Shown here: positions 5,952-42,870 of the stretch, one piece after another
Layout: each line of letters begins with the position of its first letter
Position numbering within the stretch: the stretch's first letter is position 1
Origin: Eubacteriales bacterium
GTDB taxonomy: Bacteria; Bacillota; Clostridia; Oscillospirales; CAG-272
Assembly: GCA_045659405.1 (NCBI GenBank)
Contig: JAZOWX010000065.1
Location: forward strand, 9,574 to 73,573
Length of the DNA stretch: 64,000 nt
Reading direction: 5' to 3'
Notes under the pieces: generated by a model
What the model was told of the DNA's origin: nothing
The model's input: the letters and a program-made list of their open reading frames with translations, nothing else
Database searches by the model: none
Translations under genes and position numbers: made by a program

Positions 5952-6022
5952 TCAAGCCTCCGGCTTCATTGTGAACTTGCCGGGGAGAATGAAGCTTATA
6001 CTTCAGGCTTCATTGTCGGGTA
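5952..6022 (-). repeat. Two ghost copies of the lysS 3' terminus
   Basis: Minus strand 6022..5996 reads TAC CCG ACA ATG AAG CCT GAA GTA TAA (YPTMKPEV*), followed by 22 nt of 3' UTR homology. Minus strand 5975..5952 reads TTC ACA ATG AAG CCG GAG GCT TGA (FTMKPEA*). The real lysS end is FPTMKPEV*. Confidence 0.9.
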
Positions 6023-6165
6023 GCAAGGCAAAAAGCTTCCTGTGGACGCTTTTTGGCGAAGCGAAACCGCCCATAGCAAGGAGCAAACAGAGCCGAGGCT
6101 TGCGTAGGAGAGAGTTTGCGACTATGCGAAGGTGGAGGGGATAAACTTGCTGGGGAAAATGAAGC

Positions 6166-7674
6166 TTATACTTCAGGCTTCATAGTCGGGAACAGAAGCA
6201 CGTCACGGATTGAAGCCGAATCTGTGAGGAGCATAACGAGTCTGTCAACACCGAAGCCGAGACCGCCTGTGGGGGGCATACCGTATTCGAGCGCTGTGAT
6301 GTAGTCGTAATCAACCTCGGCTGACGTGTTCGGGTCTTCGAGGCGCTTTTTAGCAACCTGATTTTCAAATCTCGCCTTCTGGTCGATGGGGTCGTTAAGC
6401 TCGGAGAATGCGTTTCCGAACTCGGTGCAGTTGATGAAATACTCGAATCTCTCTGTGAAGAGGGGATTCTCGGGCTTGCGCTTTGCAAGCGGGCTGTTTT
6501 CAACAGGGTAGTCGTAGATGAACGTGGGCTGTACGAGCTTGTCCTCAACGAAAGCGTCAAACAGCTCGACAAGAACAGTACCGCGTGTTGCATCAGCGGG
6601 AACTTCAACGTGGTGAAGCTTTGCAGCCGCTCTTGCATCCTCGTCGGATGCCCAGTCGTTGTAGTCGATTCCCGAATATTTCTTAACAGCCTCAACCATA
6701 GTAAGGCGCTCCCACTTGCCAAGGTCGATTTCAGTACCCTGGTAGGTGATTTTTGTGCCGCCGCAAACCTCGTTTGCAAGCTTCTTGTAAAGCTCCTCGA
6801 CAAGGTCCATCATTCCGTAGTAATCGGTGAATGCCTGATAAAGCTCAACCGAGGTGAACTCGGGGTTATGCTTTGTGTCCATACCCTCGTTTCTGAAAAT
6901 TCTGCCGACCTCGTATACCTTGTTCATACCGCCTACAATAAGGCGCTTGAGGTAAAGCTCGGTCTCGATACGAAGGTACATATCAATGTCAAGTGTGTTG
7001 TGATGAGTTACAAAAGGACGAGCCGATGCTCCGATTTCAAGGGGGAGAAGTATCGGTGTATCAACCTCAAGGAATCCCTTGCCGTCAAGATATTCACGGA
7101 TGCCCTTGAGTATCAGTGAACGCTTTACAAAGGTGTCCTTAACCTCGGGATTTACGATAAGGTCTACGTATCTTTGTCTGTATCTCTGTTCAAGATTTGT
7201 GAGTCCGTGAAACTTTTCAGGCAGCGGAAGCAAGGATTTTGCAAGCAAAACTATACTTTTTGCGTGTACGGAAACCTCGCCTGTCCTTGTTCTGAAGAGA
7301 ATACCCTCAACGCCGATGATGTCACCAACGTCCCATTTCTTGAAAGCGGCATAGTCCTCCTCGCCAACGTCATCACGTGCGACGTAAAGCTGAATCTTGC
7401 CGTCTGTGTCGAGCAGGTGAGCAAAGGAAGCCTTACCCATAATTCTGCGGCTTACCATTCTGCCCGCAACTCTTACGGTTATCTCCTCGCCCTCTGCGAG
7501 TGTCGCCTCACGGCTCTCAAATTCTTCAATAGCGCACTTTGCGGTATGCGTAGCATCGTACTTTGTTATCTCAAAGGGATTCTTGCCCGCATCTGTAAGT
7601 GCCGCAAGCTTCTCACGTCTTATCTGAAGCTCGCTTGTGGAATTGTATTCGTTAACGTTCTTATTTTCTGCCAT
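6166..7674 (-). CDS. lysS: Lysine--tRNA ligase (class II)
   Basis: 502-aa ORF with an OB-fold N-terminal region and class II core motifs (FRNEG, GMPPTGGLGFGVDRLVMLL). Confidence 0.97.
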   Translation of the reverse strand: MAENKNVNEYNSTSELQIRREKLAALTDAGKNPFEITKYDATHTAKCAIEEFESREATLAEGEEITVRVAGRMVSRRIMGKASFAHLLDTDGKIQLYVARDDVGEEDYAAFKKWDVGDIIGVEGILFRTRTGEVSVHAKSIVLLAKSLLPLPEKFHGLTNLEQRYRQRYVDLIVNPEVKDTFVKRSLILKGIREYLDGKGFLEVDTPILLPLEIGASARPFVTHHNTLDIDMYLRIETELYLKRLIVGGMNKVYEVGRIFRNEGMDTKHNPEFTSVELYQAFTDYYGMMDLVEELYKKLANEVCGGTKITYQGTEIDLGKWERLTMVEAVKKYSGIDYNDWASDEDARAAAKLHHVEVPADATRGTVLVELFDAFVEDKLVQPTFIYDYPVENSPLAKRKPENPLFTERFEYFINCTEFGNAFSELNDPIDQKARFENQVAKKRLEDPNTSAEVDYDYITALEYGMPPTGGLGFGVDRLVMLLTDSASIRDVLLFPTMKPEV

Positions 7675-16343: not shown

Positions 16344-19300
16344 ATGGATATTATTTCTCATGTTCAGGAAATGCTCGCCAAAGACACCGTTACAGCGTAC
16401 ATAGCGCTCGGAATTGCCGGTGTATGCGGCGTCCTGATGCTCCTTGGCGCTCTTAAGGGCTTGTCACGAGGACTTACTCGTCAGACGGTTCGTTTTCTGA
16501 CGATTATCGCGTCTATCGTGATTTCGGTTCTTGCGGCAACAGGAATTACCAACGCTCTTATAGGCTTCTTTGACGGAAAAACTCTGCAAGAGGCGCTTAC
16601 CGAGCTTGGCGCAGGCGAAGCGTTTGCGGAAATGGACGGACTTGCTCTGGCAATCCTCAACGCAATCGACCCCAGCGCTGTACAGCAGATTCTTGCTCTT
16701 CCCATGACGCTTATTGTAGCTCCTATTGTGTTTGTGCTTGTCTTCATTTTCATAAGCGCAATCATGCTTATAGTACACGCTATAATCAGCGGTGCTTGCG
16801 GCTTCACTAAAAAGAGAAACAACTGGTGGACACGTCTTGCAGGTCTTGCACTCGGTGCTGTTCAGGGACTTGTTGTTGCGGCAGCTATACTCGTTCCCGT
16901 AAGCGGACTTATGGGCATCGTTTCGGATACGGTTGCGCAGATAGAAAGACTTGATGAGCAGACTGTTATGGCTTCTACCGAAAACGGTGGCGGCGACGAG
17001 GATGAGGGTGAGTTTGACGTATCCGAAATTCTCGCTATGTACGACGAGTACCTTGCAGACGTTGCTGAAAGCCCTGCTCTGAAACTCGTAAACAAGTTTG
17101 GCGGTAACCTTATAAGCAAGCAGCTTTCTACCGTTAAGATCGGCGGTCAGAAGCAGGATGCAAGACAGACTATCCCCTCGCTTGTAGGCATAGCTGTTGA
17201 TGCTATGGGTCTTGCAGATATTGATATTACAGCTCTCACACAGGATGATAAGGATACAATTACCGGTATCATTGATAAGATTATGGCAGAGCCGCTCACC
17301 CGTGACATTATCGTTGCAGGCTTCAAGGCTGCGGCTAATGCTATCGGCTCCAACAGCGAGCTTCTTGAGGACGTTCCCGCTCCCTTTGATGAAATCGTTG
17401 CATCTGCGATTTCGGTATACGGTAACAGCACAGCGGCTACCGTTAAGTCCGACCTCGGTACTCTTTGCAAGGTATTCTTCATAGTTGCTGATTCGGGCAT
17501 CCTTGCAGAGACTGACGAGCTTGATCCCATAGCTCTTATCACCGCTCCTGATGATGAGAATATGATTATCCTCGTTCTTAATGCGTTTGCAGAGAACCCC
17601 AACTTCAACACAATCGTTCTCGATGCGTTTGATATCCTTGCTGATGCTATCAAGAACGGTGAAATAGAGGATCTTCCCGAGGAGATTAATTCGTTTGCAT
17701 TCGCTATTAATCCCGTGCTCGACCACTTCGCTGAAATGACGAGCCTTACAGGAATCGTTGATGACGTTAAGACGATGCTCGCAGTTATGAGAGACATCGC
17801 AGGCACAGGTATATTTGAGGAAGACTCCGAAATTGCATTCGAGGACTTCATCTTTGCAGAAGAGGGCGAAACTCCTCTTATCAAAACCATGCTCGGCAGA
17901 TTCGTTGAAAACGAAGCTCTTGACGCTATGATGATGGAAATCATCGCAGGCGCTGCCGAAGCAATCAGAAACAACGAAATCGAAGATCTCCCCGAGGAGA
18001 TGACCGAATTCGGCTTCGTAATCAACCCCGTGCTCGACCACTTCGCAGACATGAGCAGTATTTCGGGAATTATAGCTGACCTTGATACTATCATTGCTGT
18101 TATGAAAGACCTTGACGACGCAGGTATGCTTGACGAGGATGCAGAGTTTGATATCGAGGTATTCCTTCTTTGCGAAGAGGGTGAGACTCCCCTTATCAAC
18201 ACAATCCTTGGCAGATTTGCTGAAAACGCAGCTCTTGACGCTATGATAATGGAAATTATCTCGGGCGCAGCCGAGGCAATCGAGGACGGCACACTTGAGC
18301 TTCCCGAGGAATCCGAGGAATATGCATTCCTTCTTAACCCCGTACTTGCACACTTCGGCGATATGGAGTCGGTAGACGACGTTATCGCAGATATTGATAC
18401 AGTTATAGAGATATACAGAGAAATCGAAGAGTCGGGTATCACCGATGACGATTTCGACGAGGATGAGCTTCTTAACGTGCTTCTTCTTAACGAGGACTGT
18501 GTTATAGACGCTATCCTTGATATAGTTGATGAAAACGAAGCGCTTGAAACTCTTATTCTGGAAATCATCACAGGTGCGGCTGACGAGATTGTCGCAGGCA
18601 ACCTTCCTCTGTTCGAGGATTCGGATATGCCCGAGGATATTGAGGACGTGCTGATGGAGGTTATCGCAGTTATTGCCGAAACCGACAGCATCACTACACT
18701 CAAGGGTGACATTCAGGTTATTCAGGACGTATTTGCTCTTGTAGGTGATATCGAATTCAACGAAGACACAGACTACGTAGAGCTTCTCTTCGGTGCAGAA
18801 GAGGGTGAGGAGAGCGTTATTATAGCAGCTCTTAACAAGCTCGCTGCTTCAAGATTTGACGATGCTATTCTCGGAGCTATCCAGGCAATTGCTTCCGACC
18901 CTGCATTCCTTGAGGATGCTGACGAGGCAACCGCTGAGGTGATTCAGCCCTTCCTTGACGTATTCACAGCAGATGAAGCAACTCTTGCAAGCATCACAGC
19001 AGATATCGAGGTGCTTCAGGAGGTTATAATCCTTCTTAACAACAGCGGTGCGTTTGAGGATGGCGCAGATGCGCTTTCGATACTCTTTGTAAAAGAGGCA
19101 GACGAGGACGAAACCCTTATCCTAACCGTTATCGGTAAGCTCGAAGCTACCAACTTTAAAGATCCGCTTGTAAATGCTTACAAGTCTATCGCAACAAAGG
19201 ATGACAACGGCAATTATCTGATGCTTGACGGTGCAGATGCTCTTACAGCATCTATTGTTGGACCTCTTCTTGAGGAAATAGCAAGAACTGCATCTATAAC

Positions 19301-20951
19301 CGATATAAAGAACGACGTAGGATATATCTCCGAGGCTGTAACGCTTCTTGACAGCGAGGGTCTTCTCGGTGATGGCAGCGAAGAGAATATTGACGAGCTC
19401 GAAGCTATCTTTGGCCGTGAGGGCGAGGAAGACAGCCTTCTCGTTCAGATTATCGAAATCTTCGAGGGTACACGTTACGACGATGAGCTTACAGCTGCTC
19501 TTACCGAAACTATTTCCGACGAGCTTGACGCAGGCTCCGACCCCACAATGGCGGTTATCACAAAGGCAATGTTCAACCTTCTTCACGGTGCGGATAACCT
19601 CACCGACGTAAAGGCAGACATCAACGCACTCGGTGACGTTATCGTACTCCTTGAGGTTAGCGGTGACGGCGATATGCTCGCACTTCTTACCAAGGACGGT
19701 GACGGTAATACACCTATCAACAAGGCAATCGACGAGTTCACCACCGATGACCTTCAGAGCTTCCTTCTTGAGGTTGTAACAGGCCTTTCGGGCGGTGTTG
19801 TAAACTACTATGACGGCGAAGCGGGCGACGACGATATCGAGATATCGCTTGGCGAGCTTGCAGAGCCTACACTCTCCTTCGTAATCGCAGCTATGGAGGT
19901 ATTCGCACAAATCGACACCGTTGATAAGCTTGACCGTGACGTTGTGACTATTTCCAATATTATCGAAATTCTTGATACCAACGGACTTATGTCTGACGAG
20001 GGTAACATCTCGGTTGACGTTGTAACGATCTTCACAGATCCCGCTGTAAATGCGGCAGCTAACGAAACCGTTATCGACCTTATCCTTGCAGAGTTTGAAG
20101 CAAACAGTGACCTCAACCCCGTGCTTCTTGCTCTTACACGCAGCTTGTCCGCGGATATCGACCTTATAAACGTTGGCGCTCCGTTTGATATGCTTGTTGC
20201 ATCGGTTGCAGACGTATTCGGCAGAAGCACCGCTGAAACCGTTGTTTATGACGTACAGACTGTTGCAGAGGTATTCGTAATACTCGTTGATGCAGGCGTG
20301 CTTGAAGAGAATGCAGATGCCGTTGGAATCCTTTCCGAAAAGGATGAGGGAACAGGCGAGACAATAGTTGACCGCATTGTTGCAACTCTTAAGACAAACG
20401 ATAACACCAAGCCCATAGTTACAGACTTCACCAAGATTTCGCTTTCGCTTATGATAAACGGCACTACCGGTGAGGGTGCTGAAGGCGGCGCAAGTGACTT
20501 CGAGGAAATCGAGGAAACCTACACCGAGGCAAAGGGTGAGCTTGATAACGTCGTTGCAGATAACGTAATCGTTACAGACGGCGGAACAAAGTACAGCGAG
20601 AAGACCGAAGAAGAAAAGCAGGAAGCTATTGAAAGCGTTTCCGGCGCTATTTCGGATGCTCTTGATAACACTCTTAAGGAAGAGGGCTCGACCGACGATA
20701 CGCCCGTAGTTGACGAAGAGGTTGCCAAGGGTATGGCTGAATTCGTTCTTGAAAACTTCGGTGACAAGACAATGGAAGATCTTGTTGAAGAGGGACTTTA
20801 TATAGAAGTAAAGGACGAAAACGGCGACGTTGTTACTGACACCGACGGAAACGTCAAGTATGAGATTTCGGACGAGGCTATTTCGGACGTTATTCTCAGC
20901 TACTACAATGCATGGCTTGCAGCTCAGCAGAATGCTGGAGCAGGCAACTGA
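16344..20951 (+). CDS. Giant (1535 aa) highly acidic repeat protein with an N-terminal multi-TM CvpA-like domain
   Basis: Single uninterrupted ORF. The first ~200 aa have four or five hydrophobic helices resembling the CvpA family. The rest is D/E-rich with about ten repeats of ~105 aa. It has its own promoter and a strong terminator. Confidence 0.85.
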   Translation: MDIISHVQEMLAKDTVTAYIALGIAGVCGVLMLLGALKGLSRGLTRQTVRFLTIIASIVISVLAATGITNALIGFFDGKTLQEALTELGAGEAFAEMDGLALAILNAIDPSAVQQILALPMTLIVAPIVFVLVFIFISAIMLIVHAIISGACGFTKKRNNWWTRLAGLALGAVQGLVVAAAILVPVSGLMGIVSDTVAQIERLDEQTVMASTENGGGDEDEGEFDVSEILAMYDEYLADVAESPALKLVNKFGGNLISKQLSTVKIGGQKQDARQTIPSLVGIAVDAMGLADIDITALTQDDKDTITGIIDKIMAEPLTRDIIVAGFKAAANAIGSNSELLEDVPAPFDEIVASAISVYGNSTAATVKSDLGTLCKVFFIVADSGILAETDELDPIALITAPDDENMIILVLNAFAENPNFNTIVLDAFDILADAIKNGEIEDLPEEINSFAFAINPVLDHFAEMTSLTGIVDDVKTMLAVMRDIAGTGIFEEDSEIAFEDFIFAEEGETPLIKTMLGRFVENEALDAMMMEIIAGAAEAIRNNEIEDLPEEMTEFGFVINPVLDHFADMSSISGIIADLDTIIAVMKDLDDAGMLDEDAEFDIEVFLLCEEGETPLINTILGRFAENAALDAMIMEIISGAAEAIEDGTLELPEESEEYAFLLNPVLAHFGDMESVDDVIADIDTVIEIYREIEESGITDDDFDEDELLNVLLLNEDCVIDAILDIVDENEALETLILEIITGAADEIVAGNLPLFEDSDMPEDIEDVLMEVIAVIAETDSITTLKGDIQVIQDVFALVGDIEFNEDTDYVELLFGAEEGEESVIIAALNKLAASRFDDAILGAIQAIASDPAFLEDADEATAEVIQPFLDVFTADEATLASITADIEVLQEVIILLNNSGAFEDGADALSILFVKEADEDETLILTVIGKLEATNFKDPLVNAYKSIATKDDNGNYLMLDGADALTASIVGPLLEEIARTASITDIKNDVGYISEAVTLLDSEGLLGDGSEENIDELEAIFGREGEEDSLLVQIIEIFEGTRYDDELTAALTETISDELDAGSDPTMAVITKAMFNLLHGADNLTDVKADINALGDVIVLLEVSGDGDMLALLTKDGDGNTPINKAIDEFTTDDLQSFLLEVVTGLSGGVVNYYDGEAGDDDIEISLGELAEPTLSFVIAAMEVFAQIDTVDKLDRDVVTISNIIEILDTNGLMSDEGNISVDVVTIFTDPAVNAAANETVIDLILAEFEANSDLNPVLLALTRSLSADIDLINVGAPFDMLVASVADVFGRSTAETVVYDVQTVAEVFVILVDAGVLEENADAVGILSEKDEGTGETIVDRIVATLKTNDNTKPIVTDFTKISLSLMINGTTGEGAEGGASDFEEIEETYTEAKGELDNVVADNVIVTDGGTKYSEKTEEEKQEAIESVSGAISDALDNTLKEEGSTDDTPVVDEEVAKGMAEFVLENFGDKTMEDLVEEGLYIEVKDENGDVVTDTDGNVKYEISDEAISDVILSYYNAWLAAQQNAGAGN
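17655..18599 (+). repeat. Three best-conserved 315-nt (105-codon) tandem units inside the giant gene
   Basis: Units start at 17655 (NGEIEDLPEE...), 17970 (NNEIEDLPEE...) and 18285 (DGTLELPEES...). All three share ..NPVLDHFA(E/D)M..., (A/C)EEGETPLI and ALDAM(M/I)MEII.GAAEAI strings. Confidence 0.85.
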
Positions 20952-25109: not shown

Positions 25110-25679
25110 TCAGCGCCCTGCGTGATACAGCAGCACAGCGAGCGTTGTTTTTTTGCCGTAATGCGTGTGCTTAAGCACTTCGAAGGCGGCAAATTCCGGG
25201 CTCTCGAAATCTATATTTTCCTCGCCCATCTCAAGCACCAGCAGAGCGCCGTCGTTCAGCATATCCCCGTCAAGCAGTCTCACTACCGCATCAGCAGCGC
25301 ACATCATACCGTATGGCGGGTCAATAAAAACGAGGTCAAATCTCTCTTTCCCCGATGCCTTTCGGATATAGTTGCGGTAGTCTGTAACAAGGTAACGGCA
25401 CTTGTCGAAAAATCCGAGCGACTTTGCGTTTTCCTTGACTATATTCTCGGCATCACGTGACATATCGGTGAACATAACGCCCGAAGCTCCTCGTGAGAGG
25501 GCCTCAAGTCCGAGCTGTCCCGAGCCTGCGAAAAGGTCAAGCACACGTCTGCCCTCTATGTCAAACTGTATAGAGGAAAACATTGCCTCCTTTATCCTTT
25601 GCGAGGTTGGACGGGTGGCATCGCCCTCCAGCGTTTTCAGCCTCTTTCCCTTTGCTGTGCCGGTTATTATCTGAATCAT
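25110..25679 (-). CDS. rsmD: 16S rRNA (guanine966-N2)-methyltransferase
   Basis: 189-aa ORF with LDLFAGSGQLGLEALSRGA and DPPY motifs. The rsmD-coaD pairing is conserved. Confidence 0.9.
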   Translation of the reverse strand: MIQIITGTAKGKRLKTLEGDATRPTSQRIKEAMFSSIQFDIEGRRVLDLFAGSGQLGLEALSRGASGVMFTDMSRDAENIVKENAKSLGFFDKCRYLVTDYRNYIRKASGKERFDLVFIDPPYGMMCAADAVVRLLDGDMLNDGALLVLEMGEENIDFESPEFAAFEVLKHTHYGKKTTLAVLLYHAGR

Positions 25680-27514
25680 TTTCTGCGTCCTCCTGAAAGC
25701 TTCTTGAAATGCTCGTATATCCGTGTGGCATCGCCTTTGCCGATTCCCTTTATTTTCATAAGCTCGCTAACACTCGCAACTCGTATTTCGGAGAGCGACA
25801 TTGCCGAAAGCAACAGCTTTGCCTTGGCAGGGCCGATGCCCGAAATCTTTTCGAGCGAGGAATGAGTGAGCGTTTTTTTCTTCGCATCCTGCGAGTGCTT
25901 CACGGCAAATCTGTGCGCTTCTTCCTGCAAATTGTAAACAAAAGAGTACACGGAAGGCTCAATTGCTATGGAAATCTCACGTTCTCCGTCTGTCAGCGCA
26001 CGCGTTTTATGGAAGTCGTCCTTTACCATACCAAACACCGGGATATCAAGAGTTGCTCCGAGGAGCGCCTCCTTTGCCACGCCAACGTGTCCGACACCGC
26101 CGTCAACCAGAATGAGGCTCGGCTCGTCAGAGAGCGATGCTGTGCCGTCACCGATATGCGAAAGCCGACGTTCGAGTGCCTCACGCATTGAAGCGTAGTC
26201 GTCGGGCGCATCCGTGACGCTCTTGATGTTAAAGCTTCTGTAATCCGAGCGCTTTAGCTTTCCGTCTGCGTATACTACCATTGATGCTGTGATATGCTCA
26301 CGGCCTATGTTGGATATATCGTACGCTTCGATTCGCTTCGGTATTTCCGAAAGTCCGAGAAGCTCTGTAAGCTTTTTGAGACTTTTGTTCTCACGCTCCT
26401 CTGAAAGTCGGTGCTGTCTTTCGGCTTCCTTTGCGTTTGCAAGTGCCATATCGCACAGTCGTCTTGCATCTCCACGCTCGGGAATTTTTACGGCTACCTT
26501 GTACTTTTTGCCAAACGAAAGATATTCGGACAGAAGCGAAATCTCCTCCTCGGGAAGCGGGAAATCAAGCAGGATTTCGCGCGGAGTATCACCGTCGCTG
26601 TCGTAATAATCGGCAATGAGCGAAATTACGTCCTCTCCCGAAACCTCGCCGCCTGTCAGGGTGAATTCGTTTTTGTTTATGAGTGCGCCGCCACGGATTG
26701 TCAGCATTGCGAGAATGCTTTCGGCAGGTGAGGTGTACAGCGCAAATATATCACGGCTCACACGCTCGTCGGCTACGACCTTTTGCTTTTCCGAAAGCTG
26801 CTCGAGCGCCTTAATGCTGTCCCTGATTGCTGCGGCACGCTCGAATTCGAGGTTTTCTGCGGCTTCGTTCATATTCGATACCAGAAGCTCACGAGTGCCG
26901 GCTACGTTGCCTGACAGCACCCATTCTGCGCATTTTACGAGCGCACGGTATTCAGCGCCCGAAACCTTACCCGTGCAGGGCGCAATACAGCGGCCCATAT
27001 CCTTGTAAATACAAGGGCGCTCTCGCCCGATATCCTTTGGAAACGAGCGGCGGCAGGTGGGCAGGGTGAAAATCTTCATAACCACCTCCAGCGCTGTGTG
27101 CGCCTCGTCTGCGCTTCTGTAAGGGCCGAAATATCTGCCCTTATCCGACCTTCTGTCACGGGTAACGAAAAGCTTCGGAAAGTCCTCGGACGTAACCTTT
27201 ATATACGGATAGGATTTTGCATCCTTCAGTCTTACGTTGTATTTTGGAGTGTGCTTTTTGATAAGCACGTTTTCAAGCGTGAGCGCCTCGATTTCCGTGT
27301 CGCACACGATGTAATCAAAGTCGGCAACGTGGCTGACCATACGCTCGGTTTTCGGGGTGTGGTGCGTACCTGTAAAATAGCTTGTGACACGGTTTTTGAG
27401 CTTTTTAGACTTTCCGACGTAGATGATTTTTTCCTCGGCATCCTTCATAATGTATATGCCGGGGGACATAGGCAGGGAATTTGCCTTTTTACGCAATCTT
27501 TCTATTCGTGTCAC
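25676..27514 (-). CDS. uvrC: Excinuclease ABC subunit C
   Basis: 612-aa ORF with a GTG start and GGGGAGGTG upstream. GIY-YIG motif GIYIMKD...IIYVGKSKKLKNRV and a C-terminal (HhH)2. Confidence 0.96.
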   Translation of the reverse strand: MTRIERLRKKANSLPMSPGIYIMKDAEEKIIYVGKSKKLKNRVTSYFTGTHHTPKTERMVSHVADFDYIVCDTEIEALTLENVLIKKHTPKYNVRLKDAKSYPYIKVTSEDFPKLFVTRDRRSDKGRYFGPYRSADEAHTALEVVMKIFTLPTCRRSFPKDIGRERPCIYKDMGRCIAPCTGKVSGAEYRALVKCAEWVLSGNVAGTRELLVSNMNEAAENLEFERAAAIRDSIKALEQLSEKQKVVADERVSRDIFALYTSPAESILAMLTIRGGALINKNEFTLTGGEVSGEDVISLIADYYDSDGDTPREILLDFPLPEEEISLLSEYLSFGKKYKVAVKIPERGDARRLCDMALANAKEAERQHRLSEERENKSLKKLTELLGLSEIPKRIEAYDISNIGREHITASMVVYADGKLKRSDYRSFNIKSVTDAPDDYASMREALERRLSHIGDGTASLSDEPSLILVDGGVGHVGVAKEALLGATLDIPVFGMVKDDFHKTRALTDGEREISIAIEPSVYSFVYNLQEEAHRFAVKHSQDAKKKTLTHSSLEKISGIGPAKAKLLLSAMSLSEIRVASVSELMKIKGIGKGDATRIYEHFKKLSGGRRK

Positions 27515-27573: not shown

Positions 27574-27700
27574 TCTGCAAATCTCGGCAGTTGAAAATAT
27601 CGGTAGTTTGAAATATCGGTAGTTGAAAATCTCGGCAGTTAAAAATCTCGCTGTTGAAAATCTCGGTAATTGAGAATATCGGTAGTTGAAAATCTCGGCA
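27574..27700. repeat. Tandem array of eight 16-bp units (consensus GTTGAAAATMTCGGYA)
   Basis: Head-to-tail copies with no spacers; one unit is 15 bp. The array lies 60 nt upstream of the uvrC start and downstream of the HPr terminator. Confidence 0.9.
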
Positions 27701-27761
27701 GGGCCCTGTATACGGATAAAATTAAGGAGTCCGAAAGCCGGCCCGACGCTTTTGTGGTAAA

Positions 27762-33092: not shown

Positions 33093-33516
33093 GTGGAGTT
33101 TGCTTTGCAAACACGCAGCTTAAAGCGTGAGTAGAGCCAAAAAAGCCGACTACAAAACGTTTTTCAATGCACAGCACAGAAGCGCTATGCTACCACAGGT
33201 ATTCGCCTATGGCGAAGATACCCACGCTCTGCGCCTGAAGAACAAGCTCTTCGAGCTTCGAGCGGGGTATGCGAACCGGGGTTTGCTATGCAAACACGCA
33301 GCTCAAAGCGTGAGTAGAGCCAAAAAAGCGTCACCCAATCGGGTGACTGTGCTACCACAGGTATTCGCCTATGGCGAAGATACCCACGCTCTGCGCCTGA
33401 AGAACAAGCTCTTCGAGCTTCGAGCGGGGTATGTGAACCGGGGTTTGCTTTGCAAACACGCAGCTCAAAGCGTGAGTAGAGCCAAAAAAGAGTCACCCAA
33501 TAGGGTGACGCCTTTT
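33093..33516 (-). repeat. 162-bp tandem repeat (about 2.6 copies) downstream of tRNA-Thr
   Basis: Units start at 33189 and 33351, with only a few mismatches seen by eye. Each unit has several hairpins (GTTTGC-aaa-GCAAAC, AAGCTC-gaa-GAGCTT, GGTATCTTCGCC-ata-GGCGAATACC). Each ends in the terminator hairpin GTCACCCAAT(C/A)GGGTGAC. Confidence 0.9.
33484..33516 (-). terminator. Intrinsic terminator after tRNA-Thr
   Basis: GTCACCC-tatt-GGGTGAC followed by TTTTTT on the minus strand. Confidence 0.85.
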
Positions 33517-33592
33517 TGGAGCTGCTAGCCAGATTTGAACTGGGGACCTCATCCTTACCAAGGATGTGCTCTACCAACTGAGCCATAGCAGC
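33517..33592 (-). tRNA. tRNA-Thr (GGT)
   Basis: Minus strand GCTGCTATGGCTCAGTTGGTAGAGCACATCCTTGGTAAGGATGAGGTCCCCAGTTCAAATCTGGCTAGCAGCTCCA. Anticodon loop TTGGTAA. There is one C-C mismatch at the base of the T-stem. CCA is encoded. Confidence 0.85.
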
Positions 33593-35542: not shown

Positions 35543-38500
35543 ATGAAAAGATTACACAAATTGCTTGTGATACTGCTTTCGCTTTCGATGCTGCTCGGTG
35601 TGATCGCCATTTCCGCTTTTGCGGCAGATGACACGGTTGCTAAAATCGGCGACGAAGAGTACACATCGCTTTCTGCGGCGGTTGCGGCGGCAAACGGCCA
35701 GACGGCTGTTGACGAAAACGGTGACCCCGAGGCGGTTACGATCACGCTCGTAAAGGACGTGACGCTCGGCGCATCAGAGGGGCTCACGCTTGAGCTTGAT
35801 AAGCTTGCACTCACGATTGACCTTAACGGAAAAACGCTTGACGTGTCGAACGTCGGTCCTATCAGAGATCCCGGAGCGACAAAGGACAGAGAGGTTAAGG
35901 CGGCTATATTCGCAAGGGGCGCAGGCTCTGTGCTTACCTTTAAAAACGGAACTGTTATAAACTTTGGCGATAAGAACGGTGTATTTGGCATAGAAAAGGA
36001 TAGAGATGCGTGTATTGTAATTGAGGGTGTTACCGTCAATGCAAAGGGCGGTATTTCAACGCCCATAGTTAACGCCAGAAACGGTAAGGTTACGGTTTCG
36101 GATTGCGAATTCGTATCCTACGGCTATAATGCTGCCGTTGTTCGTCAGGCAGGCAATGCAGAGATTATAATTGAGGATTCCGAGCTGCTTAATATAGACG
36201 GCACCGGAATGCAGTCGGCTGTAATCAAGACCGAGGGTACGGCTACCGCTGTGCTGTCCGACACGGTTGATGACAAGATTGTTGAAAGACCTCATATATA
36301 CGTAAAGAACACCGAGATGTTCGCTGCATCAAACGTAATTATCACACACCTGTCGGGTGAGGCGAGACCTGCGACCTGCATCAAGCCCATTCTTCTGTTT
36401 GAGGATTGCGATATCGAGCAGTGCAACAAGCTTTCCTATAACAACGATGAAACACTTCTTCTTCAAAGCAATAACTACGTTTTGAGAGGAAATAACGCTG
36501 TCGTTGAGTTTGACGGCTGTAACGTTGAATACGCAAGAGTTGCGATTGCTACAAGCGACGCACTTGAGGTGAAAATCGACAACTCCGTATTCTCTATGAC
36601 TCTGCTCGGACAGCAGTATTATATGAATGAAACCACCGATCTCAAGACAGAATGCGACTCCTATTTTGTTTCGGGTAAGGGTAAGGTTTCGGTAACCAAC
36701 ACGGCTATATATCTGCCCAAATTGGCAAACGGCAAATTCGTTCCCATTGCGGATAACGTGGCTCTCCAGTATGCCGATTCGCTTGACGTGCTTTCCAAGG
36801 ACGGCTTGAAGCTTGGCAAGGGCTGTGTTACTAACTCCACAGATGATTTCGGTGATCTTCGAATTCTTGCTATCGCATGCACCTGTTACCCGATTGCCGA
36901 GGGCAGCTACATAGATATTTTCGCTCCCGAAAAGGACGAATGGTCGGATAAATGGTATTCGGACAACAGCTACGAGGCAAAGCTCAACGGCAAGAAGTAT
37001 AAGACCTTTGCCGAGGCTTACGCTGATGCTAAGGACGGAGATAAGATCGAGCTTCTTTCCAATATTGCAGGAATGCAGTCGATAGAAAAAGAAATATCCG
37101 TAAGAAACTTCGTAGGATATGAATTCAAGCACACCTCGGCAACCTATAAATCGATAACCTCGCGCGGATTTATCGACTTTATCCCCGCAAAGGCATACGA
37201 GCTTATAAGCGTTAAGCTTGTAACAGACACGGGTACGGAGGAAATGCTTGTTGCGGCAGGCAACTATGCGGTATATAACGGCTCGCTTGCAGCCGGCTGG
37301 AGATTCAGCGATTACAGAATCATCAACTTCAAGGGCTGGGGCGAAACACCGGATAACGCAAACCTTGGCGCTGATCTTCCTTACATCGACGGTAGCGTAT
37401 CCTCGATAACGGTTTACGCTGTATTCGATGAGATTTACGACCTTGACGCAGACTATGCGGTAACAGAGCTTAACGGCGACTTTATAGCCTTTGGCGGCAG
37501 CTACGACGAGCTTGCGGAAACAAATAACGTGTTTATGTCCGGCAAATTCAACGGCGAGGGCGAAAAAGCACGTGACAAGGTAATCGTACTTCTTCGTGAT
37601 ATATACACAGACAAAACGATAAACACTAATATAAACGGTAATATTTACATTGACCTCAACGGTCACAAGATTGTTACTAAAAACAATTTCCTGTTCTCCT
37701 CGGATCTTTCAAACTTCATTTATCAGTATGACGGAGCGAAAGAGGATGGCAAGGTTCCGATCAGAAGATACAACAAGAACTTTACCGTATGGGAGCGTAA
37801 GGATGCAAATTCTCCCTGGGAGCAGGTTTCTAACACGCCCTTCTACGCTGTTAAGAGCGCCGACGACCCCCAGATGACAGAATATGCCATAGGTCTTGGT
37901 GACTTCGAGCTTGCCGCAGGCAGAAGCAATGGCGGTGTGACGACGAACTTCTATCTCTTCTCCTCGAGGCCCGGAGCTTCGGTAGATACCGGCTCAAGCC
38001 CCATGTTAAAAATCATCTCTCACATGAGAGTAAGAATGTACACCGAGGGTAAGGGTAAGGAGCTTATAAACTCTAACACCAATACGAACAAGGTTAATAT
38101 CGGTAACTCGAAGCTTTCTGCTGATATGGCGGCAAGGGTTGGCGATAATCAGATTACCTTCAACTGTAAGACTCTTGGCAATTACAACGAAATTTTCAAC
38201 CATGCAAACTATATTGACGATGCGATTATTATTGCAAGCGGCGCGGGCGGTGCAATAACCTGTTCTGACACTGTCGGTCTTAAGGGTACGATTTTCATTA
38301 CCAACAGTGTACTTATGAATACAACGGCGGGCGCTTGCCTCATTCAGCTCGATTCGCTTGCTGCACTCTATGTTGAGGGTACAACCTTCGTTGCAACTCC
38401 TAATGGAGCAACCTATCCCGAATTTATGGGCAAGCTTGCTTTCCACAGTGGTATGCCAGCATCGACCACAAAGAGAGAAATCACAGGCTGTAATTTCATA

Positions 38501-39748
38501 AACTGCAAGCCTACGGTTAAAACTCTGACAAACAACGGTACTACCGTTCTCGTTAAGGATATCGCATATAACGTAGCCGGCGGTGTAACAGTCAACACCG
38601 AGGGACTTGTTCTTGATGCATCCTACGTTGTAAACGAGGATGCCGTATGGAACATTCCTGTTACGGTAGGTGATGAGGTTTACTACCTTGCTTATAAGAC
38701 GCTTCACTCGTCCGCTACCCCCGAAACAGTTACGGTTACCTGGTGTGATGCTGATGGCAACACTATCGGGGAAGAGACTTACTTCCGTGGCGCAAAGGTT
38801 GTTTATAATGGCGCTTTGAGCAGCGGTGTTGTAGACGGCAAGCCTTACGTCAACCTTTCGAAGTTTGTTATCGAGGCTATCGGTGACGCTGACCTTGATA
38901 GCATTCAGGCAGACGCACAGGTTATGGTAAGCGAGGTTGTATACGGTATTGATGCAGAGGTTGAGGTTCGGCATAACGTTAATATCTCGAGCGAGCTTAC
39001 CGTTTCTATCTACGTTCCCGTGCTTTCCGAGATAACGAAGATTTCGCTTATGACACCCGACGGTGAAAACCTTATCAACCCCGAGAATACTGTAATTCTT
39101 GGTGATGGCGCTGAGTACTACGTTGTAACCTCTGTTGCTATAAGCCCCAATCAGATTCACAGAAATATCGTATATGCTATCACGGTTTCCGACGGTACGT
39201 ATACCGACGTTGTATACAAGAGCGTAAGCATTCTCGGATATGCAGAGAAGCTGCTCGCGGATAAGGAAGCCAAAGATTCGGTAAAGGCGCTTGTTTCTGC
39301 TATGCTCGTTTATGCAAACGAGTCCTACAAGTACTTTGACGGTGCGGAAAATGCTGACGTTGCAGCTCTTATCGGTGAATACGAGGTATCCGCTCCCACA
39401 GCAGAAACCGCAAAGGACGTTGCGGCTATATCCGAGTACGTTCTTTACGCAAGTCTTCAGCTTAACAGCAGAATTGCATTCGTGTTCGAGGTTGCAGACG
39501 GCGTTGAGGCGCTCACTATCAACGGTGTAGAATATGCGGCTGTTGACGGATTCGTTGTATACGATTGCGACGTAGCAGCTACAAACGACCTTATCTCGGT
39601 AGAGGTAGGCGGCGCTGTCGGTGCATACGACCTTGTAGCGTATATAGCTGCGGTTGCTCCTGTGGCAGATGAGCTTACTGCTTACGATCTCGCTTCGGCG
39701 CTTTACAGCTTTGCTGCAGCGGCTGATGCGTATCTTGCAGACAACTGA
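35543..39748 (+). CDS. Very large (1401 aa) secreted protein, probably beta-helix/adhesin-like
   Basis: Sec signal MKRLHKLLVILLSLSMLLGVIAISAFAADD. It has repeated A-x-I-G/NG-x-x-Y-x-T/S-(L/F)-x-x-A modules (VAKIGDEEYTSLSAAVAAANG; AKLNGKKYKTFAEAYADAKDGDKIELL). I see no LPXTG, SLH or dockerin. Confidence 0.8.
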   Translation: MKRLHKLLVILLSLSMLLGVIAISAFAADDTVAKIGDEEYTSLSAAVAAANGQTAVDENGDPEAVTITLVKDVTLGASEGLTLELDKLALTIDLNGKTLDVSNVGPIRDPGATKDREVKAAIFARGAGSVLTFKNGTVINFGDKNGVFGIEKDRDACIVIEGVTVNAKGGISTPIVNARNGKVTVSDCEFVSYGYNAAVVRQAGNAEIIIEDSELLNIDGTGMQSAVIKTEGTATAVLSDTVDDKIVERPHIYVKNTEMFAASNVIITHLSGEARPATCIKPILLFEDCDIEQCNKLSYNNDETLLLQSNNYVLRGNNAVVEFDGCNVEYARVAIATSDALEVKIDNSVFSMTLLGQQYYMNETTDLKTECDSYFVSGKGKVSVTNTAIYLPKLANGKFVPIADNVALQYADSLDVLSKDGLKLGKGCVTNSTDDFGDLRILAIACTCYPIAEGSYIDIFAPEKDEWSDKWYSDNSYEAKLNGKKYKTFAEAYADAKDGDKIELLSNIAGMQSIEKEISVRNFVGYEFKHTSATYKSITSRGFIDFIPAKAYELISVKLVTDTGTEEMLVAAGNYAVYNGSLAAGWRFSDYRIINFKGWGETPDNANLGADLPYIDGSVSSITVYAVFDEIYDLDADYAVTELNGDFIAFGGSYDELAETNNVFMSGKFNGEGEKARDKVIVLLRDIYTDKTINTNINGNIYIDLNGHKIVTKNNFLFSSDLSNFIYQYDGAKEDGKVPIRRYNKNFTVWERKDANSPWEQVSNTPFYAVKSADDPQMTEYAIGLGDFELAAGRSNGGVTTNFYLFSSRPGASVDTGSSPMLKIISHMRVRMYTEGKGKELINSNTNTNKVNIGNSKLSADMAARVGDNQITFNCKTLGNYNEIFNHANYIDDAIIIASGAGGAITCSDTVGLKGTIFITNSVLMNTTAGACLIQLDSLAALYVEGTTFVATPNGATYPEFMGKLAFHSGMPASTTKREITGCNFINCKPTVKTLTNNGTTVLVKDIAYNVAGGVTVNTEGLVLDASYVVNEDAVWNIPVTVGDEVYYLAYKTLHSSATPETVTVTWCDADGNTIGEETYFRGAKVVYNGALSSGVVDGKPYVNLSKFVIEAIGDADLDSIQADAQVMVSEVVYGIDAEVEVRHNVNISSELTVSIYVPVLSEITKISLMTPDGENLINPENTVILGDGAEYYVVTSVAISPNQIHRNIVYAITVSDGTYTDVVYKSVSILGYAEKLLADKEAKDSVKALVSAMLVYANESYKYFDGAENADVAALIGEYEVSAPTAETAKDVAAISEYVLYASLQLNSRIAFVFEVADGVEALTINGVEYAAVDGFVVYDCDVAATNDLISVEVGGAVGAYDLVAYIAAVAPVADELTAYDLASALYSFAAAADAYLADN

Positions 39749-39903
39749 TTAAACTAAAATACCATAACACCCAAAATCGGGCGTTACGGTAGAAAACGAT
39801 AATAAAAACCAAAAACAGGCTGTCTTGACTTTATGGTCAGGGCAGCCTGTGTACCTTTGTACCCCTCTCGCAGTATAGGGTAGCCCGTCTTCATAAAATA
39901 TAA

Positions 39904-39936
39904 AGCCCGATGGCAAATTGCCATCGGGCTGTTTTG
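39904..39936. terminator. Shared hairpin terminator between convergent genes
   Basis: AGCCCGATGGCA-aat-TGCCATCGGGCT followed by GTTTTGTT. Confidence 0.7.
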
Positions 39937-39982
39937 TTCAATCGGCCTTTAATAGCGGAACATACTCACTCCACCGCTTACC

Positions 39983-40057
39983 GTGGAGGAGTTCGGTTAG
40001 AAAACCTGCCTATTAAAGTGCGTTTCCGTTTTTATCGAAAAGCGGCAATGGTGCAAG
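39983..40057 (-). repeat. Ghost copy of the 3' end of the phosphoribosyltransferase gene (14 codons, stop, 30 nt of UTR)
   Basis: Minus strand 40057..40013 encodes LAPLPLFDKNGNAL*, identical to the real C-terminus (40169..40125). It differs at 7 nt in 6 codons, all synonymous. The adjacent 30-nt UTR differs at 1 nt. The two copies are 112 nt apart. Confidence 0.92.
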
Positions 40058-40124
40058 ATTCTCGGCTCCCTCTGCGAGGGGGCTCCGCAAAGCGGTGGAG
40101 GAGTTCGGTTAGAAAAGCTGCCTA

Positions 40125-40676
40125 TTAAAGTGCGTTTCCGTTTTTGTCAAAGAGCGGAAGCGGTGCGAGGTATGTTATATCCTTTCTTTCGATAGCATCG
40201 CCCTCGGCAAGGATAGCCATTTTGCCCACGATTTCGCCGCCTGCCTGCAAAACGAGGTTTTCAAGCGACAGGAGCGAACCGCCCGTGCTTATTACGTCGT
40301 CAACGATAAGCACACGCTTACCCTTGAGATATTCGGCATCGTCACCGTCTATGTAAAGAGTCTGTCCGTTTGTTGTGGTGATAGACTTTGTCTCGCATTT
40401 TACCACGTCTTTCATATAAAGCTTAACCGACTTGCGTGCAAGGACGTAGCGGTTTTTGCCCGAAATGCGGCACATAGCGTGAATCAGGGGAATACCCTTT
40501 GATTCTGCGGTTATCATAACGTCGTGCTCGGGTGCTATTTTGTAAAGCTCGGCTGCGCAGTGCTCGGTAAGCTCCACGTCTCCGAAAAGCACGAATGCTC
40601 CAATATAAAGCTCCTCGTTAATGGGGCAGAGCGGCAAATCACGCTCAAGGCCCTTGATGTTGATTTTATATACCAT
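40125..40676 (-). CDS. Purine (adenine/xanthine-type) phosphoribosyltransferase family protein
   Basis: 183-aa ORF with the PRPP-binding loop VLIVDDVISTGGS. Confidence 0.85.
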   Translation of the reverse strand: MVYKINIKGLERDLPLCPINEELYIGAFVLFGDVELTEHCAAELYKIAPEHDVMITAESKGIPLIHAMCRISGKNRYVLARKSVKLYMKDVVKCETKSITTTNGQTLYIDGDDAEYLKGKRVLIVDDVISTGGSLLSLENLVLQAGGEIVGKMAILAEGDAIERKDITYLAPLPLFDKNGNAL

Positions 40677-40811
40677 AAAAAAGCTCCTATCCGCCGTGGG
40701 TACGGCTTGTAGTTTTTTGTTCTTTAGAGTCGGGGAATTGCTCCTATTACAGTATATAATAATTCGGAAAATTTTTCAAGCGAATTTTTAAAATTTAGCG
40801 TTTTTAAAGAA

Positions 40812-41702
40812 TTATTCGAAGAAATCGTGTCCGCCGATTGAAAAAGCGTATTTTCTCGTATTGACAATCCAGAACGAGGTCGAGTACTTGGGCGCCATAA
40901 AGAATAAAATGTTCTCCGAAAGCCGTGTACCTTCAAGACAGATTTTAGCGGCAAGAGTCTCGGTGTAGCCTGGGGTGTTATAGATTGTTCCGTTTGCTAC
41001 GGGCGTAAACTGAACACCGTATTTGCGGTCAAAGATTACGCTGTAAATAGTGTTCGGGAAATCTCTTGACGCTACTCTGTTGAGTATGACGTTGCCGACG
41101 GCTATCTGCCCGATAAGCGACTCGCCGCGGCTCTCTGCGCTGATGATTCGCGCAAGCCACAGCACCTCGTCATCGCGGTAGAATTTTTCAGCCGGTAAAA
41201 GCGCTGAATATCTGCCGTAAACCCTTACCGAAGAAGTGCTGTTTGTAAAGCTTAAACCGCACGCTTTCACAAGCGTATCGAGCGGAGCATACATTCTTCC
41301 GTTTGAAAGAATGGTGACGGGTGATGTTGAAAACAGAGCACGTCCGTTTGCCCATACGACGTATGCGCCGTCTGTCGCTGTGAGCGTAAGGCCCTCTCCT
41401 GTGACGGTTATAGTGCGGCTTTTGCTGTTATATGTAACCTGTGCGTTTGTGATGACAGAATCGGAAAAAGCTCTTACGGGTACATATATCTGTGAGTTGA
41501 TTACAAGTGCTTGCTCTGAAAGCTTTGCCTCTCTAACGTAGATTTCAAGTGACATATAGCTGTGAAGATTTTTGTTTCCAATGCCAAATAGCCGCAGCTC
41601 ATTTTTGGTATAATTTGAGGCTGAAGCTCGTGTTGGAAGCATCAAAAAGATAAACGTGAATGCAAAAATCAAAGCAAAGCACCTCTTGAGTGCTTTTTTC
41701 AT
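40812..41702 (-). CDS. SleB-like cell wall hydrolase with an N-terminal copper-amine-oxidase-like (stalk) domain
   Basis: 296-aa ORF with a signal peptide. Hydrolase_2 signature LARIISAESRGESLIGQIAVGNVILNRV...FPNTIYSVIF. Confidence 0.85.
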   Translation of the reverse strand: MKKALKRCFALIFAFTFIFLMLPTRASASNYTKNELRLFGIGNKNLHSYMSLEIYVREAKLSEQALVINSQIYVPVRAFSDSVITNAQVTYNSKSRTITVTGEGLTLTATDGAYVVWANGRALFSTSPVTILSNGRMYAPLDTLVKACGLSFTNSTSSVRVYGRYSALLPAEKFYRDDEVLWLARIISAESRGESLIGQIAVGNVILNRVASRDFPNTIYSVIFDRKYGVQFTPVANGTIYNTPGYTETLAAKICLEGTRLSENILFFMAPKYSTSFWIVNTRKYAFSIGGHDFFE

Positions 41703-42013
41703 TAAGTCCTCCTTTCTATTTTTGCCATAACCGGCGGTGGAAGCAAAGGCGAAAATTCAATCTTCCGCCGCTCTGTGGCTATGTAAAGTGTAGCAAACAA
41801 AGGTGTTTTTTTCAATAGTGAGCCTATGGCAAAAATGTAATAAGATGGCAGAGGACACCGGCTCTCGTATTTCTTTACATTAATATATATAGGTGAGCTT
41901 TAAAGCCATATTTTACCTATTCCGTCTGCCTTCGAAAAAACACAAATTACGACTATTTATCCCGAATTTGGCAATACTAACTTTGACAGGAAAGTCAAAG
42001 GGGAGCAGATATT

Positions 42014-42802
42014 ATGCGATTAAACAAGGTTGAAATCTGCGGAGTTGATACGGCAAAGCTTAAGGCACTTAACGAGGACGAAAAACGAGAGCTTTTGTAC
42101 AGAGTAAAGAATGGCACGGATGCCGAAAGACGAGAGGCAAGAGATGCAATGATAATGGGGAATTTGCGTCTCGTTTTATCTGTAATAGGAAGATTTACCC
42201 CAAAGCGTGAGACGGTAGACGACCTTTTTCAGGTGGGGTGCATCGGACTTATGAAGGCGATAGATAATTTCAACCTTGAGCTTGACGTCAGGTTTTCAAC
42301 CTATGCTGTGCCGATGATTATCGGTGAGGTAAGACGGTATCAGCGTGATAACAATTCGGTAAGAGTGTCGCGCGGTATGCGTGATTTGGCATACAAGGCG
42401 CTGATGGTAAAAGAGGATATAATAAGCAAAGAGCAACGTGAGCCAACACTTGCCGAAATAGCAAAAAGGCTCGACGTGCCGCAGCGCTCTGTCGGTGAGG
42501 CTATGGAGGCAATAATCGAGCCGATTTCGATTTTTGATTCGGTTTTCGGTGACGGTGAGGATTCGGTTTACGTAATAGATAAGCTGAAGGATGATGGAGA
42601 GAGCGATGATATCTGGGTGGAAAATATCGCCCTCAAGGAGGCGCTGACGCATCTTAACGAGCGTGAGTGGTCGATAATTTACAAGCGCTTTTATAAGGGC
42701 AGAACGCAAATGGAAATAGCCGAGGAGGTCGGAATAAGCCAGGCGCAGGTGTCAAGGATTGAAAAGGGCGCAATCGAAAAAATGAGAAAGCTTATGGAGT
42801 GA
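42014..42802 (+). CDS. sigG: Sporulation sigma factor SigG
   Basis: 262-aa ORF. NKVEICGVDTAKL at the N-terminus, GNLRLVLSVIGRF, DDLFQVGCIGLMKAIDNF and FSTYAVPMIIGEVRRYQRDNNSVRVSR closely follow the SigG pattern. Confidence 0.9.
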   Translation: MRLNKVEICGVDTAKLKALNEDEKRELLYRVKNGTDAERREARDAMIMGNLRLVLSVIGRFTPKRETVDDLFQVGCIGLMKAIDNFNLELDVRFSTYAVPMIIGEVRRYQRDNNSVRVSRGMRDLAYKALMVKEDIISKEQREPTLAEIAKRLDVPQRSVGEAMEAIIEPISIFDSVFGDGEDSVYVIDKLKDDGESDDIWVENIALKEALTHLNEREWSIIYKRFYKGRTQMEIAEEVGISQAQVSRIEKGAIEKMRKLME

Positions 42803-42870
42803 ATTTAAAGCTTACAGAGAGAATTTAAGGCTTATAAAGTGAATTTAAAGCTTATAAAGTGAAAGCTTGG
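42781..42870 (+). repeat. 20-bp tandem stutter starting in the last codons of sigG
   Basis: The gene end aatgagaaagcttatggagt(ga) is followed by gaatttaaagcttacagaga, gaatttaaggcttataaagt, gaatttaaagcttataaagt and gaaagcttgg. Confidence 0.85.

Follow-up and report, generated by a model that had tools for sequence, protein, structure and literature searches.

A displaced copy of a gene end downstream of a phosphoribosyltransferase gene in a Clostridia genome and its reading as a possible recombination scar

Among the documented routes by which 3' fragments of genes become orphaned are 'C-terminal displacement' and homology-facilitated illegitimate recombination, and such fragments have been described at rhs loci and in the T6SS effector-immunity arrays of Vibrio cholerae (PMC5361080). 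We describe a comparable arrangement in the window (the whole 64-kb stretch of DNA that was analysed), in which the end of a phosphoribosyltransferase (PRT) gene recurs shortly downstream as an untranslated copy, hereafter the ghost. As in the rhs and T6SS orphans, a displaced 3' fragment stands behind an intact gene, lies in the same orientation, looks like coding sequence and would stem from another allele; those orphans have one homologous and one illegitimate side, and the same layout is proposed here for the ghost. Unlike them, the PRT is a housekeeping enzyme without the logic of polymorphic toxins and immunity, the displaced fragment holds just 45 coding nt, the same peptide is encoded at both ends so that nothing has been diversified, and the join falls within a palindromic repeat element. 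Two marks of a displaced 3' fragment were found, namely a partial copy in the same orientation directly downstream and divergence under coding constraint, and the collections searched yielded no identifiable donor or scar-free sister strain. Scars consisting of displaced gene ends are already known, and no new system or function is involved here; what is particular to this case is the housekeeping gene, the clean mosaic of ancient and recent parts, the position at a palindromic repeat and the presence of a second ghost in the same window.

Two further classes of sequence invite comparison. ICESt1 and ICESt3 insert into the 3' end of fda and regenerate it (PMC5812530). The ghost repeats resemble attL and attR in that they span a stop codon, leave the gene intact and combine a near-identical core with a diverged flank; unlike attL and attR, they are separated by only 37 nt, are not accompanied by an integrase and occupy a site that is free of elements in relatives. 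Repeats of the REP, REPIN and BIME type, for their part, are hot spots of rearrangement with a role at the join-points of duplications, the markers of REP and REPIN being a RAYT transposase and a GTAG or CGTC tag. All three are extragenic palindromic repeats (PMC3116915, PMC2817692). The 46-nt element found at the PRT locus is like them a short, GC-rich hairpin past a stop codon, with an inverted partner arm, intergenic copies elsewhere and rearrangement junctions at its edges. Unlike them, it is a candidate only, with one copy in the window, no RAYT transposase seen and its related copies in high-GC gut bacteria, whereas the genome here has 47% G+C.

The PRT gene, assigned from its open reading frame and homologues, occupies positions 40125..40676 on the minus strand and encodes a protein of 183 aa with the Pfam domain PF00156, the close homologues of which are named adenine phosphoribosyltransferase in their source records; its stop codon TAA lies at 40125-40127, and the gene end reads CTCGCACCGCTTCCGCTCTTTGACAAAAACGGAAACGCACTTTAA on the minus strand. 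The first-pass annotation had reported a copy of this gene end 112 nt beyond the real one, and a repeat search bore this out as a direct repeat of 75 nt with 67/75 identical positions, the starts of the two copies being 112 nt apart. The real copy (40095..40169, minus) takes in the last 14 codons, TAA and 30 nt of 3' UTR, and the ghost copy (39983..40057, minus) comprises 14 codons, a stop (TAA, 40013-40015), 21 nt of UTR and then the first 9 nt of the palindromic hairpin element. Translation of both copies gave the same peptide, LAPLPLFDKNGNAL followed by a stop, and confirmed the seven annotated differences in six codons, which fall at codon positions 3,3,1,3,3,3,3 and are synonymous in 7/7 cases; the 30 nt past the stop hold the one mismatch that had been noted there (40117 C in the real copy, 40005 G in the ghost). 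Read as real/ghost, the substitutions are C/T, G/A, C/T, T/G, C/T, T/C, C/T and C/G, with A in the ghost at 1/8, and the longest exact repeat between the copies is 28 nt. The parts of the repeat occur in two copies only in the 64-kb window, where none is expected by chance. The abrupt end of homology on both sides was likewise upheld, as evidenced by ungapped and gapped tests that detected no significant nucleotide homology outside the 75 nt on either side.

Simulation of seven random substitutions left the peptide unchanged in 1e-5 to 6e-5 of the runs; given this P for 7/7 synonymous differences, a non-coding duplicate that drifted neutrally is excluded, as had been argued from the sequence beforehand. 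The ghost follows the real copy after 37 nt and precedes the terminator. Its frame differs from that of the gene (112 = 3x37+1) and it is preceded by TAA-TAG; it is therefore beyond the reach of read-through and untranslated, and its use through read-through or frameshifting was ruled out.

The clustering of the differences is an observation that goes beyond the first-pass annotation: the first 24 nt contain seven of them and the 51 nt that follow just one (Fisher p = 0.001). In the real copy the diverged part, 24a (CTCGCACCGCTTCCGCTCTTTGAC, coding for LAPLPLFD; 40146..40169, minus), holds all seven synonymous differences with respect to the ghost, the first 24 nt of which form 24b (CTTGCACCATTGCCGCTTTTCGAT; 40034-40057, minus). 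The rest is a 51-nt block of near-identity (40095..40145 in the real copy, minus; 39983-40033 in the ghost) that consists of the codons for KNGNAL, TAA and 30 nt of UTR, starts with the bases AAAAACGGAAA and has its sole difference at 40117. Both parts were compared with a panel of 54 independent lineages, for which the matching stretch was fetched from genome and metagenome collections. The 24-mers coding for LAPLPLFD share 19/24 positions on average between species, and only 14% of the pairs are at or below 17, the real and ghost copies standing at 17/24, a level at which synonymous divergence is saturated. For the 51-nt stretch the mean between lineages is 18/51 and the maximum 32/51, against 50/51 for real versus ghost; KNGNAL, at the C-terminal end, represents the most variable residues of the PRT family, and the UTR of the block is absent even from the closest relatives.

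Taken together, the exclusively synonymous differences and the 17/24 identity indicate that both 24-mers long evolved as coding sequence, in two alleles. The 50/51 identity, set against at most 32/51 elsewhere and a UTR that relatives lack, indicates that the 51-nt part was recently shared with the resident locus, and such recent sharing means that any account needs a homologous exchange. The repeat is thus a mosaic, its 5' third descending from two anciently separated alleles under selection and its 3' two-thirds being, to judge from the panel, recently shared. The earlier proposal that the ghost was coding sequence elsewhere before landing here is consequently supported in part: the first 24 nt of the two copies diverged as coding sequence, to the species level (17/24), whereas the 3' 51 nt, which match the resident copy at 50/51, do not bear it out. 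Several lineages conserve AAAAACGGAAA at the nucleotide level, and the boundary between the 24-nt and 51-nt parts at this stretch is plausibly a homologous joint; the sequence at the mosaic boundary, AAAAACGG, is compatible with one, and the ghost junction GAGAAT|CTTGCA displays no microhomology.

The two copies are separated by a 37-nt spacer (40058-40094, 68% G+C). Joined to the final 9 nt of the real copy, this spacer forms a 46-nt stretch (CTCCTCCACCGCTTTGCGGAGCCCCCTCGCAGAGGGAGCCGAGAAT; 40058..40103, minus) that is a copy of a GC-rich hairpin repeat element. It agrees at 41/46 positions, with one 3-nt gap, with a near-invariant core of about 52 nt, AAGCTCTCTCCCCCACCGCCTGCGGGCGGAGCCCCCTCGCAGAGGGGGCCAAGAA, and the alignment (window 40103-40058 versus core) scored 58 against a shuffle maximum of 23. 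The core contains two GC-rich hairpins and often stands within larger palindromic structures. It came to light in a BLAST search of the region against a phage collection, where four human-faecal contigs titled 'UNVERIFIED Bacteriophage sp.' were hit, and further contigs were obtained from IMG/VR by pattern scanning. The core is present between housekeeping genes (its neighbours being formyltransferase, IMP cyclohydrolase, UvrD and acyltransferase) in 8 unrelated contigs of high G+C (62-67%), and once in the 64-kb window. Since the element lies between bacterial housekeeping genes, it is a bacterial extragenic hairpin repeat rather than a phage feature. Seven of the contigs (L100-L103, i.e., MT837730, MT836157, MT836991 and MT838152, and L104, L105 and L107 from IMG/VR) are labelled as phage yet carry housekeeping genes such as a purN-type formyltransferase, IMP cyclohydrolase and UvrD helicase; from this gene content they look like fragments of bacterial chromosomes. 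The hairpin element matched no Rfam family, and its copies in other genomes have no gene-end duplications beside them.

The last 9 nt of the real copy, CTCCTCCAC, are the start of the element, and the alignment crosses the repeat boundary. Because the consensus of the element is continuous across the junction of real copy and spacer, that junction should be ancestral and both ghost junctions novel. The conserved right end of the element (…GCCGAGAAT) adjoins the first base of the ghost, and on the other side of the ghost lies an arm, AAGCGGTGGAGTGAGT (39964..39979, minus), which inverted-repeat analysis and a predicted RNA fold identified as the complement of ACTCCTCCACCGCTT at the element start; the exact inverted repeat measures 11 nt (40090-40100 / 39969-39979). 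This arm includes the CGCTT complement to the element start, 5 nt that are missing from the ghost's own copy. The ghost hence sits between an element copy and its complementary arm, and in the predicted minimum free energy RNA fold the arm at 39964..39979 pairs with that of the real copy and encloses the ghost, the ghost-containing 3' UTR folding strongly as a whole (z = -4.6). Farther downstream, an intrinsic terminator (39904..39930, minus) with a 12-bp stem and a T-run contains the central stem/loop motif ATGGCA...TTTGCCAT that is also present in the terminator of the related lineage L096, which argues that the ghost lies within the transcribed 3' UTR and approximately where the gene natively ends. 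One candidate was dropped: the spacer had been considered as a further protein relic, 'LAEG', in the frame of the ghost (P 0.001-0.004), and the bases in question belong to hairpin 2 of the element (29/31).

The neighbours of the PRT gene are a large surface-type protein of 1401 aa (35543-39748, +), a SleB-type cell-wall hydrolase, a sporulation-type sigma factor, OAD-beta and a helicase; neither an integrase or other mobile-element gene nor a reverse transcriptase was present among the ORFs scanned from 28-49 kb. The 1401-aa protein has no Pfam domain. Comparison of synteny, which had been put forward as a check on the origin of the ghost, established that the region downstream of PRT is a breakpoint in many relatives and that no ghost lies there: the genes that follow PRT vary widely, are housekeeping genes and include none from mobile elements and no integrase. 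A second gene-end copy was absent from the 80 species-representative loci listed and from about 15 closer metagenomic loci. The nearest lineage, L081, matches the real copy at 20/24 and the ghost at 18/24.

It was also observed that the SleB-PRT pair (window 39749-42013) is inverted between the 1401-aa and sigma-factor genes, the usual order being SleB-PRT-sigma (L084, L086, L095, L001, L002). The inversion is common to L096 and L081-83, lineages that are 75-89% identical (L096, L081), and is therefore much older than the block of 98% identity; this mismatch in age, 75-89% versus 98%, rules out the inversion as the cause of the ghost.

A single conspecific contig, L099 (Logan SRR22318479), was recovered; its identity is 98.3% across the 1777 compared nt and reaches 99.2% in the first 396 nt of PRT. 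It ends 112 nt ahead of the repeat, and the 99.2% match marks the body of the PRT gene as typical of the species. Look-ups of exact proteins (PRT, SleB, sigma factor, OAD-beta, TM protein and P0121) gave no match from the same species. Pattern scans of JGI metagenome and IMG/VR DNA contained neither the 51-nt block nor 24b, and the donor allele was not found in them; no locus carried the ghost 24-mer, the best being 22/24 in L040. The 75-nt repeat had no viral or plasmid matches and the ghost no Rfam family. The surroundings of the locus are rich in repeats in relatives as well, with intergenic direct-repeat arrays in L084 (4663-4825, past the sigma gene) and L011 (3895-4350, past PRT) with a unit length of about 55-103 nt and a spacing of 94-380 nt.

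A second stop-spanning ghost occurs in the window at 5974-6190 (minus sense), at the gene of a class II aminoacyl-tRNA synthetase (6166-7674, minus; Pfam tRNA-synt_2). Here a repeat of 47 nt (6144-6190), consisting of 7 codons, TAA and 22 nt of UTR, recurs 170 nt downstream at 5974-6020 with 44/47 identical positions; only one coding position differs, and does so synonymously (ACT>ACA), the spacer of 123 nt is unique, and an 11-nt third partial copy, ACAATGAAGCC, follows. No further stop-spanning ghost was encountered in the 548 kb of related loci scanned.

The most economical family of explanations for the PRT ghost is that of a recombination scar, since the signature in the 24-mers requires two functional alleles and the identity of the 51 nt requires exchange or common descent. 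That a diverged allele was involved in such a scar is likely as a general claim, which is weighted above the specific reading because it also includes a local duplication followed by import. The specific reading, which we put forward tentatively and at somewhat less than an even chance, is that the ghost represents a non-functional scar in the 3' UTR of PRT, left by the out-of-register union of two versions of the locus. The two versions would have met most likely through uptake of DNA from a related strain, and one of them would have possessed a PRT coding region of foreign descent with a recombination joint at the conserved AAAAACGGAAA. An illegitimate, homology-facilitated join, possibly at a break between the complementary arms, could have united them out of register, with the consequence that the new gene end was set upstream of the old one rather than replacing it. 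The end left over would have had too little time to decay and may be transcribed, without effect, within a longer and strongly folded 3' UTR; without the ghost, the palindromic element would read …GAGAAT-GGTAAGCGG…. For this scar to form, no fewer than two events are required: homologous exchange where the two parts of the mosaic meet (24|51), and an illegitimate join. With 51-nt direct repeats lying 112 nt apart, the ghost should be prone to loss, and polymorphism among strains is therefore predicted. No function is indicated for the ghost, which is lineage-specific, untranslated and without a match to an RNA family.

The variant that dispenses with an out-of-register join supposes that 75 nt were duplicated locally between the arms, e.g., during break repair, and that a diverged import later replaced the real 3' coding region up to AAAAACGG, so that the ghost would be a fossil of the former native allele; we regard it as being on the unlikely side, at about half the weight of the scar formed by out-of-register joining. 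Two events suffice for it, it explains the 51-nt identity directly, its mosaic boundary falls at a nucleotide-conserved stretch fit for a crossover, and the aminoacyl-tRNA synthetase ghost, with 3/47 differences, suggests that local duplications of 3' ends occur in this genome. The evidence as to which copy is native is conflicting. The ghost is continuous with a native-looking terminator, which speaks for the variant and mildly favours the ghost as the native copy, whereas codon usage and the 99.2% conspecific gene body mildly favour the real one: the ghost contains the rare codons CCA (8%) and TTG (6%), and the real copy looks native, with log-likelihoods of -8.2 (real) and -10.4 (ghost). 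L081 is slightly nearer to the real copy, which also runs against the variant, although neither the identities to L081 or other lineages nor a sliding-identity profile of the gene is informative on nativeness. In addition, an import at saturated synonymous divergence would need recombination at roughly 75-80% identity, and a templated local copy is unsupported inasmuch as neither ghost junction has microhomology.

That an assembler or gap-closer joined the versions of two strains or species serially at the palindrome is quite improbable, even though palindromes are sites where contigs tend to break and the junction is located within a palindromic element. Nearly all relatives are MAGs and the window very probably derives from a metagenome-assembled genome too, two stop-spanning ghosts in 64 kb stand against none in 548 kb of related loci, and synonymous differences would be natural for alleles that truly co-exist; but no plausible parental sequence has a k-mer in common with the spacer|ghost and ghost|arm junctions, which leaves a graph assembler no path by which to make them, the longest exact repeat of 28 nt is below the usual final k values, there are no Ns or other signs of joining, and a 50/51 block that includes UTR would be left unexplained between deeply diverged alleles. 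A shade less probable again is a remnant attL/attR pair, brought to within 37 nt by the near-total deletion of a prophage or ICE that carried its own gene end. Direct repeats over a gene 3' end with the frame intact are typical of such insertions, as with ICESt1/3 in fda (PMC5812530), and the repeat does join a near-identical core to a more diverged arm. This explanation is poorly supported because neither an element nor an integrase is present here or in relatives: the neighbours include no mobile-element gene, no relative has an element or a ghost after PRT, where the downstream genes are housekeeping ones, the repeat is without viral or plasmid matches, and the 37 nt between the copies are a chromosomal hairpin element and not the ends of a mobile one. 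Some insertion sequences generate direct repeats that measure tens to hundreds of base pairs, and a long target-site duplication from insertion of the hairpin element, with later divergence, would account for a spacer that belongs to a repeat-element family and for a second insertion-like structure at 5974-6190 (123 nt within 47-nt repeats). We consider it highly improbable, given that the element overlaps the left repeat by 9 nt that the ghost shares, so that the repeats are not simple flanks of it, that copies identical at birth cannot gain seven differences, all synonymous, within 24 nt and leave the other 51 nt unchanged, that element copies elsewhere lack gene-end duplications and that the 123-nt spacer is unrelated to the hairpin element. 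Least credible are a tandem duplication by slippage followed by neutral drift and a functional second copy, such as a regulatory RNA or the template repeat of a diversity-generating retroelement (DGR). The copies are close and in direct orientation and the 3' UTR folds strongly (z = -4.6); the synonymous-only divergence excludes drift, the divergence is clustered besides, the 37-nt spacer is unrepeated and hence not part of a tandem unit, and a functional copy is at odds with the lack of an Rfam family and with the absence of the ghost from all other lineages compared. In a DGR, differences between variable and template repeats are confined to template-repeat adenines, with a reverse transcriptase nearby. 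Such a system was ruled out here, the ghost having A at 1/8 of the differences and no reverse transcriptase being found among the ORFs scanned from 28-49 kb.

If the reading as a recombination scar is right, the 75-nt relic keeps a piece of an allele that has been lost as a gene from this genome, and it attests directly that a core metabolic gene of an uncultured gut bacterium traded sequence with a lineage at synonymous saturation, the palindromic repeat marking the junction. The locus would then provide a worked example of how scars can be read by mosaic analysis against a panel of lineages, and a caution for annotation and the calling of pseudogenes. A broader idea, that breaks between the arms of the element are a recurrent trap for gene-end fragments of incoming homeologous DNA, is decidedly unlikely on present evidence. 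Were it true, this lineage of uncultured ruminant-gut Clostridia would accumulate 'fossil' 3' ends, and the ghosts of the PRT and aminoacyl-tRNA synthetase genes would form a readable archive of recombination between lineages.

The window contains other repeats. Past tRNA-Thr(GGT) (33517-33592, -), a 162-nt unit is present twice at 33095-33509 with 97% identity, together with a third partial copy of 51 nt, and each full unit opens with the terminator-like hairpin and T-run of the tRNA. Kinship of these repeats, or of the 123-nt spacer at the synthetase gene, with the hairpin element was considered and ruled out, and neither the synthetase-ghost region nor the tRNA-Thr repeats had a match in the phage collection. 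A 20-nt tandem repeat of 3.8 copies (window 42787-42863, +) starts within the final 14-16 nt of the sigma-factor gene, the stop of which is at 42800-42802; its units are AAAGCTTATGGAGTGA, then ATTTAAAGCTTACAGAGAGA, ATTTAAGGCTTATAAAGTGA and ATTTAAAGCTTATAAAGTGA, with a terminator after them. The 16-nt repeat AAATCTCGGCAGTTGA, in 7.8 copies (or with a period of 63 nt), extends over 27579-27701, at and just beyond the 5' end of an ORF of 612 aa (25676-27514, minus). Finally, an ORF of 1535 aa (16344-20951, +) contains repeats of about 315 nt internally (17639-18583) and weakly matches the Colicin V production domain.
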